Part shown: positions 38,679 through 39,650 of the stretch, in pieces | How the letters are laid out: each line of letters begins with the position of its first letter | How positions within the stretch are numbered: the stretch's first letter is position 1 | Assembly: GCA_025325205.1 (NCBI GenBank) | Contig: GCA_025325205.1_4770.1 | Direction: 5' to 3' (one strand) | Length of the DNA stretch: 52,259 nucleotides | Source of the DNA: a phage | Notes under the pieces: model-generated | Databases searched by the model: none | What the model was told of the DNA's origin: nothing | The model's input: the letters and a program-made list of their open reading frames with translations, nothing else | Made by a program: the position numbers and the translations under genes

Positions 38679-39650
38679 GTGATTATGCCAGAGGGTATTT
38701 ATATAAACTACAATGACGGCAGACCTGCAATGCAAATAACAGCAGGACTACGCGCCCCGTCCTTTTGCGCTAACTTCAATCAACGCTGTCAATCAGATAA
38801 GACGCTGACCATCAACGCACCTTTAACGCCGGGATCGCAGCTTATCGTTGTTATGACTAACCCTGTTGAAGTATTAGAAGTATTCGATCAGACGTTAGTC
38901 ATCCCGGATCCAATGTATGTGACGTCCGTAACCCGAAACGGTGACAGTGGGGTGACGTTGCGAGGCGCAGATGGTCTTGGTGCTTATAGTGGATTGCCGC
39001 AATGGTCAGGGGTAGTTATGGAACTGCTACCTGTAGGAACGCGAAACGAGGGTCTATTTGTGGCTAACTCAACGGACTTCACAGCAATATCCAACGCAGC
39101 TTTTCTCATGACTTGTCAGTATTCCCAGTACGTATGGGTTAACGGTAGTATGCCATTACCTGTTGGTGGTGTTCCGTTTGCTCGCTGGAACGATCCTAAC
39201 GTGTCAGTAGGTTTTGATGGTTCGAATATTATCGTTCGCAACGCAGCATATGGTGGAATCGATGACGTAGCGGCTTCTGTTGGAATGGAGTTAGTAATAT
39301 TTAACAACACTCCCCCACAGCCCGGTAATGGTATTACCATGACGAACAGCGCTGGCCAAGTTACGTTCTCCACGGTTAAGAAGCCTTTTGTATTTAACGG
39401 AACAGTAGATCTTAGCGCAGGCTGGCAAAATATTGGTAACAGCTTAATACAACTTGCATACACAGGTACAATTATTGAGAACAACGGAGGTTATAATCAT
39501 ATTCGCATGAACGGCATTCGCATGGCAGATAATGTGGTGGGTGCTGCAAGAAACCGCGTGGTAGGCAACTACTCTCGACGACAATTCCAAATGCCCGGTC
39601 GAAACGTGGTGATCTCAACACCACTCATGACTATACCAAATATGTATTAA
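38679..39650 (+). CDS. hypothetical protein, oppositely oriented inside the tail module (candidate receptor-binding or accessory protein)
   Basis: 323-aa Gly/Asn/Thr-rich ORF with RBS, flanked by divergent promoter region and a bidirectional terminator. Confidence 0.4.
   Translation: MIMPEGIYINYNDGRPAMQITAGLRAPSFCANFNQRCQSDKTLTINAPLTPGSQLIVVMTNPVEVLEVFDQTLVIPDPMYVTSVTRNGDSGVTLRGADGLGAYSGLPQWSGVVMELLPVGTRNEGLFVANSTDFTAISNAAFLMTCQYSQYVWVNGSMPLPVGGVPFARWNDPNVSVGFDGSNIIVRNAAYGGIDDVAASVGMELVIFNNTPPQPGNGITMTNSAGQVTFSTVKKPFVFNGTVDLSAGWQNIGNSLIQLAYTGTIIENNGGYNHIRMNGIRMADNVVGAARNRVVGNYSRRQFQMPGRNVVISTPLMTIPNMY

Follow-up and report, generated by a model that had tools for sequence, protein, structure and literature searches.

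A predicted LptD-targeting terminal receptor-binding protein encoded opposite the J-like tail-tip gene of a Nonagvirus-like siphophage

The plus-strand gene situated between the lateral tail fibre and the J-like tail-tip genes of a Nonagvirus-like (Queuovirinae) siphophage very probably encodes the terminal receptor-binding protein (RBP), which would target LptD and commit the phage to irreversible adsorption by insertion into LptD(E). The window, i.e., the whole stretch of DNA that was analyzed (52,259 nucleotides; GenBank assembly GCA_025325205.1, contig GCA_025325205.1_4770.1), is Queuovirinae phage DNA, and part of this locus is ~99% identical to that of Salmonella phage SE1. Tail-tip RBPs targeting LptD are already known, their family, locus, receptor and structure having been published. 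Homology, synteny, purifying selection and the module boundaries are shown by the sequence itself; LptDE binding by the present protein and genetic dependence on LptD are carried over from the literature on its homologs, and we infer that it is incorporated into the virion of this phage. The features of the locus are listed in Table 1.

Table 1. Features of the putative RBP locus (positions are those of the window; a dot marks features without a strand).
Feature	Position	Strand	Description
Lateral tail fibre (727 aa)	36385-38568	-	Pfam phage_tail_N ('Prophage tail fibre N-terminal') and Peptidase_S74 chaperone
Intergenic region, lateral fibre / RBP	38569-38684	.	116 bp, between divergent genes
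Shine-Dalgarno GGAG	38676-38679	+	5 nt 5' of the ATG; invariant in five Queuovirinae
Predicted terminal RBP CDS	38685-39650	+	321 aa plus stop; DUF6453 / PHROG 1265
Palindromic GC-rich hairpin	39651-39674	.	Perfect 10-bp palindrome, common to the RBP and J genes
Last ~38 codons of J (…GQFGFNGNGGITIDSNGIRVPLSGGGVIIVGRW)	39684-39800	-	Tail common to eight DUF6453 phages; inside the exchanged module
J-like tail-tip protein	39684-42323	-	879 aa from conserved ATG; Phage_Tail_Tip, Ig_J_second, PHROG 31

DUF6453 was the sole Pfam match of the protein and covered it at full length (E = 9.4e-131; 435.9 bits against a cut-off of 25; profile positions 1-290 of 291), while PHROG 1265 was matched with E = 3.7e-119; the length of 321 aa fits the family range of ~310-321 aa. 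A phmmer search of all PDB sequences returned a single hit, 9rpt_C (also 9rpw and 9rqi; E = 3.8e-162), aligned without gaps from residues 2-321 to residues 2-321 at an identity of ~76%, counted roughly from the alignment. Homologs were detected by tblastn in 352 of 50,697 phage records; bas19_0020 of ChristophMerian is 95.0% identical, copies in other Queuovirinae reach 95-97%, and the copy of Dhillonvirus Lzu_P1 (vB_Eco_Lzu_P1) reaches 74.5%. The OzMSK copy carries the annotation 'putative LptD-receptor binding protein based on experimental evidence'. An earlier sequence-only reading had offered a second RBP as one option, and the receptor-binding role is upheld both by the ~76% ungapped homology to the solved RBP of Oekolampad (RBP_Oeko) and by the 95% identity to the ChristophMerian copy, which is linked to lptD mutations. 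'Second RBP' nevertheless understates the role, because the protein is predicted to act as the terminal RBP, at the irreversible step, and the lateral fibre is the primary glycan binder.

The same reading had envisaged a β-helix or fibre fold. No fibre or tailspike (β-helix) domain was found in the protein by the Pfam search, and published models of the family describe two lectin-like β-sandwiches with a conserved N-terminal 'base' and variable 'tip' loops (PMC13035648). A fold of two lectin-like β-sandwiches with a loop-bearing tip is implied by the ~76% ungapped identity to the solved chain; it is drawn from homology, since a single-sequence AlphaFold2 model of the protein had a mean pLDDT of 31.

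The ORF scan placed a real ORF of 323 aa at 38679-39650 (+), beginning with GTG. The gene proposed from this ORF stands, given its DUF6453 match (E 9e-131) and the purifying selection described below, but its start does not: it is almost certainly the ATG at 38685, and the product is 321 aa long, because every homolog begins at the ATG matching 38685. The GTG at 38679 was rejected as a start, as it reads GTA in the alignment with two relatives, SA126VB and VogelGryff, and overlaps the Shine-Dalgarno GGAG. Synonymous codon differences outnumber non-synonymous ones in comparison with both ChristophMerian (67 versus 16) and SA126VB (62 versus 14), which indicates that the reading frame is under purifying selection. 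Gly makes up 10.6% of the protein, Val 10.3% and Asn 9.7%, so that an earlier description of the protein as Gly/Asn/Thr-rich is fair for Gly and Asn, while Thr, at 7.2%, is unremarkable.

Divergence from the tail fibre gene and convergence with the J-like gene, both proposed from the sequence, were confirmed by the agreement of the ORF scan with the Pfam and PHROG domains. The J match is labelled 'central tail fiber J' in PHROG 31, and the J-like protein is presumed to serve as the attachment platform for the RBP. In the ORF scan, J appeared as 883 aa from a TTG at 42335 (LEGLMPPAII…); its homologs all start at an ATG four codons downstream (MPPAIIGA…), which gives 879 aa. The lateral fibre, which carries its S74 intramolecular chaperone at the C-terminal end, is context to the RBP module and lies outside it. 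Downstream of the fibre gene, a 235-aa ORF at 35443-36150 (-) matches PHROG 9288 (unknown function; E = 6e-128); its N-terminus is rich in Gly and Trp (GGGFGG…GWGGGGGWGGWGG) and its middle in Gln, and it further contains a CCC motif and, at the C-terminus, PTPPTPPTGCCG. Its nucleotide identity to SA126VB, JenK1, HdK1 and HdSG1 is 74-82%.

The slot just past the 3' end of gpJ, with convergent orientation, is common to all eight DUF6453 phages examined (the window, ChristophMerian, SA126VB, VogelGryff, FritzHoffmann, Lzu_P1, OzMSK and JeanPiccard), which belong to three phage groups and cover Nonagvirus, Seuratvirus, Dhillonvirus and Drexlerviridae; placement on the strand opposite gpJ is the family norm. 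Across 35400-42400, the window is 96% identical to ChristophMerian (Nonagvirus, Queuovirinae) over the 68% that aligns, and the neighboring genes of ChristophMerian include DpdA and the 7-deazaguanine pathway. The part that holds J and the RBP (about 38950-42400) is 99% identical to SE1. The public SE1 records (NC_042025.1 / KY926791.1) are linearized inside the RBP gene: base 1 falls at the start of residues 90-321, and the remainder seems to be located at the opposite end, as a second matching place. The SE1 protein is consequently split and annotated as a truncated 'membrane protein'. A 96.6% identical RBP is carried by 'Aeromonas phage SD04', and the C-terminal half of the lateral fibre (36416-37463, -) is 94% identical to records named 'Campylobacter phage A120-A134'; such host labels on enterobacterial siphophage sequences look doubtful. 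More distant DUF6453 homologs, at 23-25% identity, occur in NC_005069.1 (Yersinia PY54), NC_070980.1 (SU7) and OR757436.1 (XT73), outside the T1-like, Dhillonvirus and Queuovirinae groups. The matches are partial in the two of these that are ~76-kb phages and podoviruses by name. RBPs with the DUF6453 fold may be more widespread.

Within LptD-type Queuovirinae, the intergenic region upstream of the RBP gene has a mean column identity of 91% over the aligned stretch, and this holds even where the RBP body is only ~65% identical. The region presumably carries divergent promoters. A promoter-like site, TTGTCA-17-TAAAAT at 38562-38590, matches 10 of 12 consensus positions; however, the 6 sites returned by a sigma-70 scan of 38300-39900 compare with an expectation of 4.6 +/- 2.2 from shuffles, i.e., no excess, so that no promoter is claimable from the consensus alone. 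In the SA126VB record, a promoter is annotated at the site equivalent to the intergenic region. At the other end of the gene, directly 3' of the RBP stop codon, the hairpin folds with -17.2 kcal/mol on both strands (z = -4.3 and -4.5), a value reached in 0 of 200 shuffles, and VogelGryff holds an identical 24-mer. It looks like a terminator on both strands. The T-tracts behind it are short, and a consensus pattern scan called a terminator on the plus strand only, whereas the SA126VB record has depositor-annotated terminators for both strands at the equivalent site. The bidirectional hairpin proposed earlier at 39651-39680 therefore holds in its strength on both strands; its palindrome is slightly shorter, and the pattern scan credits the plus strand alone.

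The boundaries of the exchanged unit were delimited by comparison with Queuovirinae phages that have other genes in this slot. In blastn alignments with DruSM1 and KurtStettler, similarity to the window is lost at 38538 and picks up again near 39800; besides the RBP gene and the hairpin, the exchanged unit thus comprises the intergenic region and the last ~38 codons of J. Both phages have a gene for a 77-aa protein on the plus strand in the RBP slot, and that of DruSM1 bears a lipoprotein annotation and has a match to PHROG 12984 'lipoprotein'. An alignment of J C-termini revealed the pattern …GxFGFNGNGG-ITIDSNGI-VPLSGGG-V-VG-W (also written GxFGFNGNGG…VPLxGGGxVxVGxW) in all eight DUF6453 phages. 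In DruSM1, a member of the Queuovirinae without DUF6453, this tail is replaced by a ~100-residue extension, and the J of the LamB-targeting KurtStettler is of similar extended length; in the comparison of the eight tails with that of DruSM1, the last ~35 residues of J change with the presence or absence of the RBP. In the RBP itself, an alignment of eight sequences identified residues 1-26 (MPEGIYINYNDGRPAMQITAGLRAPS) as the most conserved stretch and residues 41-120 and 241-320 as the most variable. Across phage groups, conservation is highest in the last ~35 residues of J and in the first ~26 of the RBP, and a similar strand-like motif, 'GI-I--N-G', occurs in both the J tail (39684-39800, -) and the RBP start (38685-38765, +). 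From these alignments, the N-terminus of the RBP (~26 residues) is inferred to dock on the conserved J tail (~35 residues).

Homology of the window to Dhillonvirus Lzu_P1 is limited to the RBP body (38707-39599 by blastn), which points to a cassette-like horizontal transfer. In Citrobacter phage HCF1, the first 34 codons of a DUF6453 gene alone are present (4501-4602 of the HCF1 sequence used), 82% identical and with an exclusion-type lipoprotein gene on one side and a longer J (1,238 aa) on the other, in a record flagged as an unverified assembly. This remnant may be the scar of a replaced RBP module, which fits RBP-module exchanges.

The receptor assignment draws on published work on the family. 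Maffei et al. 2021 (PMC8594841) defined a hypervariable 'bona fide RBP locus' that directly follows the 3' end of the gpJ homolog, and listed ChristophMerian, FritzHoffmann (Nonagvirus) and VogelGryff (Seuratvirus) among seven small siphoviruses without an assignable receptor; spontaneous E. coli mutants resistant to these phages carried in-frame lptD deletions. The same LptD result was reported for OzMSK by Black et al. 2025 (PMC13035648). A 2026 preprint on 255 phages describes one protein family at the RBP locus as strictly associated with LptD, and also reports LptD-specific C-terminal features of GpJ. The PDB matches of our protein (9RPT, 9RPW and 9RQI) are cryo-EM complexes of Shigella LptDE (SfLptDE) with RBP_Oeko (Dunbar et al. 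2025, PNAS, PMC12685063). According to that report, one RBP chain is modelled per LptDE complex; RBP_Oeko binds the extracellular face of LptDE and inserts deep into the lumen of LptD, where the interface measures ~1,700 A2 and 20 hydrogen bonds to LptD are formed. Contacts are mainly to extracellular loops (EL) 3-5 and EL11, the translocon is bound in an open state, and the LptD substitutions Y671N and D352Y abolish infection as well as binding in vitro.

A protein of the same family could have been retargeted through its tip loops to a receptor other than LptD, or to a host-specific LptD variant. The predicted tip and loop regions are the least conserved in the family (residues 41-120 and 241-320 in the alignment above; see also PMC13035648), SE1 was isolated on Salmonella, and records labelled Aeromonas and Campylobacter carry 63-97% identical copies. 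At residue level, Gln299 of RBP_Oeko is described as hydrogen-bonding LptD Ser350 (PMC12685063), and the window has Arg at this position (Q299R). ChristophMerian, however, also has R299, and its protein is 95% identical to ours and genetically linked to LptD; family members at 35-40% identity (JeanPiccard, OzMSK) remain linked to LptD by resistant-mutant or plating data as published, and the 255-phage study, as cited above, ties the family strictly to LptD. Retargeting is consequently judged improbable. Under the preferred reading, that of an LptD-targeting RBP, the Salmonella LptD orthologue would be the partner, because SE1, the closest relative by DNA in J and the RBP, is a Salmonella phage.

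Considerably less probable still is a non-structural 'moron' or membrane protein with its own promoter, acting for instance in superinfection exclusion or host takeover. PHROG 1265 is filed as 'moron, auxiliary metabolic gene and host takeover / membrane protein', several homologs are called 'membrane protein' in RefSeq, and the gene lies on the strand opposite the structural operon; that placement, however, is the norm for the family. The 'membrane protein' label was rejected: the highest 19-residue Kyte-Doolittle mean is 1.14, and the protein has no TM-like segment, lipobox or signal peptide, findings that also speak against the superinfection or host-range cargo gene considered in the sequence-only reading. 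The Oekolampad homolog is reported to act from outside (PMC12685063), and the actual exclusion factor of such modules is a separate lipoprotein of ~75 aa (PHROG 4281). A role as chaperone or accessory factor of the lateral fibre, suggested by the adjoining, divergent fibre gene and also raised before, was rejected as highly unlikely, as the fibre has its own S74 chaperone, the RBP tracks the J C-terminus and not the fibre body (at a constant RBP identity of 95%, ChristophMerian, SA126VB and the window have different fibres), and no lateral fibre gene adjoins the RBP gene in OzMSK or JeanPiccard.

Among the Dhillonvirus and Drexlerviridae phages examined, a gene for a 74-81-aa lipoprotein (PHROG 4281, the Rtp45 family) lies directly before the RBP gene, with overlapping stop and start codons. 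According to Dunbar et al. (PMC12685063), Rtp45 attaches to LptDE from the periplasmic side and displaces EL4; RBP binding is thereby blocked, and superinfection exclusion results. In a check of small ORFs around the present gene, no ORF fitted into the 116-bp gap upstream of it, and tblastn of three exclusion proteins against the window gave no match (best E = 0.15). An HMM of four exclusion proteins, which scored 1e-40 on a Dhillonvirus positive control, found none in the six-frame translation of the window or in the complete ChristophMerian genome (best E = 2.1). When all ATG/GTG/TTG ORFs in the window were scanned for a lipobox, the o-spanin alone was returned. This Pro-rich o-spanin (583-924, -; lipobox LMTGC; PHROG 11621), the one lipoprotein-like ORF in the window, sits within an ORF at 611-1111 (-) whose ChristophMerian counterpart is annotated as i-spanin. 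The RBP-only layout is also found in ChristophMerian, FritzHoffmann, VogelGryff and SA126VB, and KurtStettler, which targets LamB and is a Queuovirinae phage of the lipoprotein type, keeps a small lipoprotein-type gene in the RBP slot. In the parts of the literature on LptD-type RBPs that we could draw on, no discussion of the missing exclusion gene in Queuovirinae modules was found. As a tentative proposal, somewhat short of an even chance, we suggest that the LptD-type modules of Queuovirinae lost the Rtp45-type lipoprotein and either do without exclusion or encode a non-homologous LptD-masking factor, the opposite-strand RBP gene being a relic of an exclusion-RBP operon. In the first case, the lack of receptor-level exclusion would cause progeny to be lost to LptD on the debris of lysed cells.

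Taken with the structures of its homologs, the locus suggests the following mechanism. The 321-aa β-sandwich RBP would be carried non-covalently at the distal end of the J-like protein, probably attached through contact between its first ~26 residues and the final ~35 of J. Lateral fibres would bind surface glycans first and reversibly; the loop-bearing tip of the RBP would then enter the LptD(E) lumen and contact extracellular loops 3-5 and 11, and this insertion would commit the phage to irreversible adsorption and DNA ejection. The RBP gene would form its own transcription unit, with a putative promoter and timing of its own, on the strand opposite the rest of the tail operon and ending at the hairpin common with gpJ.

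From this gene, the terminal receptor of the phage is predicted to be LptD, which is an essential and conserved protein of the outer membrane; the prediction could be of use in forecasting host range, in the choice of phages for cocktails and in engineering by RBP swaps. Conceptually nothing here is new, as the principle was published by Maffei 2021, Black 2025 and Dunbar 2025 and near-identical sequences are in GenBank. The labels under which the DUF6453 family appears in public annotations ('hypothetical protein', 'membrane protein', PHROG 'moron') are outdated, and the locus presents the Queuovirinae version of the module, without the partner exclusion gene.

A close known counterpart is bas19_0020 of ChristophMerian (Bas19), which shares 95% identity, the locus layout and the conserved intergenic region; the FritzHoffmann and VogelGryff copies have an equal layout at ~65% identity. 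The ChristophMerian protein differs at 16 amino acids, several of them in residues 300-317, and its adjoining lateral fibre differs from that of the window. RBP_Oeko of Oekolampad (Bas18, Dhillonvirus) is likewise a DUF6453 protein of 321 aa, with ~76% ungapped identity; the slot directly after the 3' end of gpJ, with the RBP gene on the other strand (a layout taken from the related Dhillonvirus Lzu_P1) and the J C-terminal tail motif are common to both. In contrast, the present phage belongs to the Queuovirinae, a lineage with ~60-kb genomes and 7-deazaguanine modification genes; its J is 879 aa long versus ~1,148 aa, the exclusion lipoprotein gene upstream is absent, and ~24% of residues differ, including Q299R at the reported LptD contact. 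Rtp44 (RTP, AugustePiccard/JeanPiccard; Drexlerviridae) shares the family (~35% identity to JeanPiccard), the position and the convergence with gpJ; unlike the RBP here, which stands alone, it is the second gene of a two-gene operon in which the exclusion lipoprotein Rtp45 comes first. The FhuA-binding RBP of T5, pb5, differs in having no detected sequence homology, in its receptor (FhuA versus LptD) and in the retention by T5 of a cognate exclusion lipoprotein (Llp). It is nonetheless alike as a dedicated, non-covalent tail-tip RBP that plugs an outer-membrane β-barrel, and the tail-proximal part is described as disordered in the structures of both pb5 and RBP_Oeko (PMC12685063).
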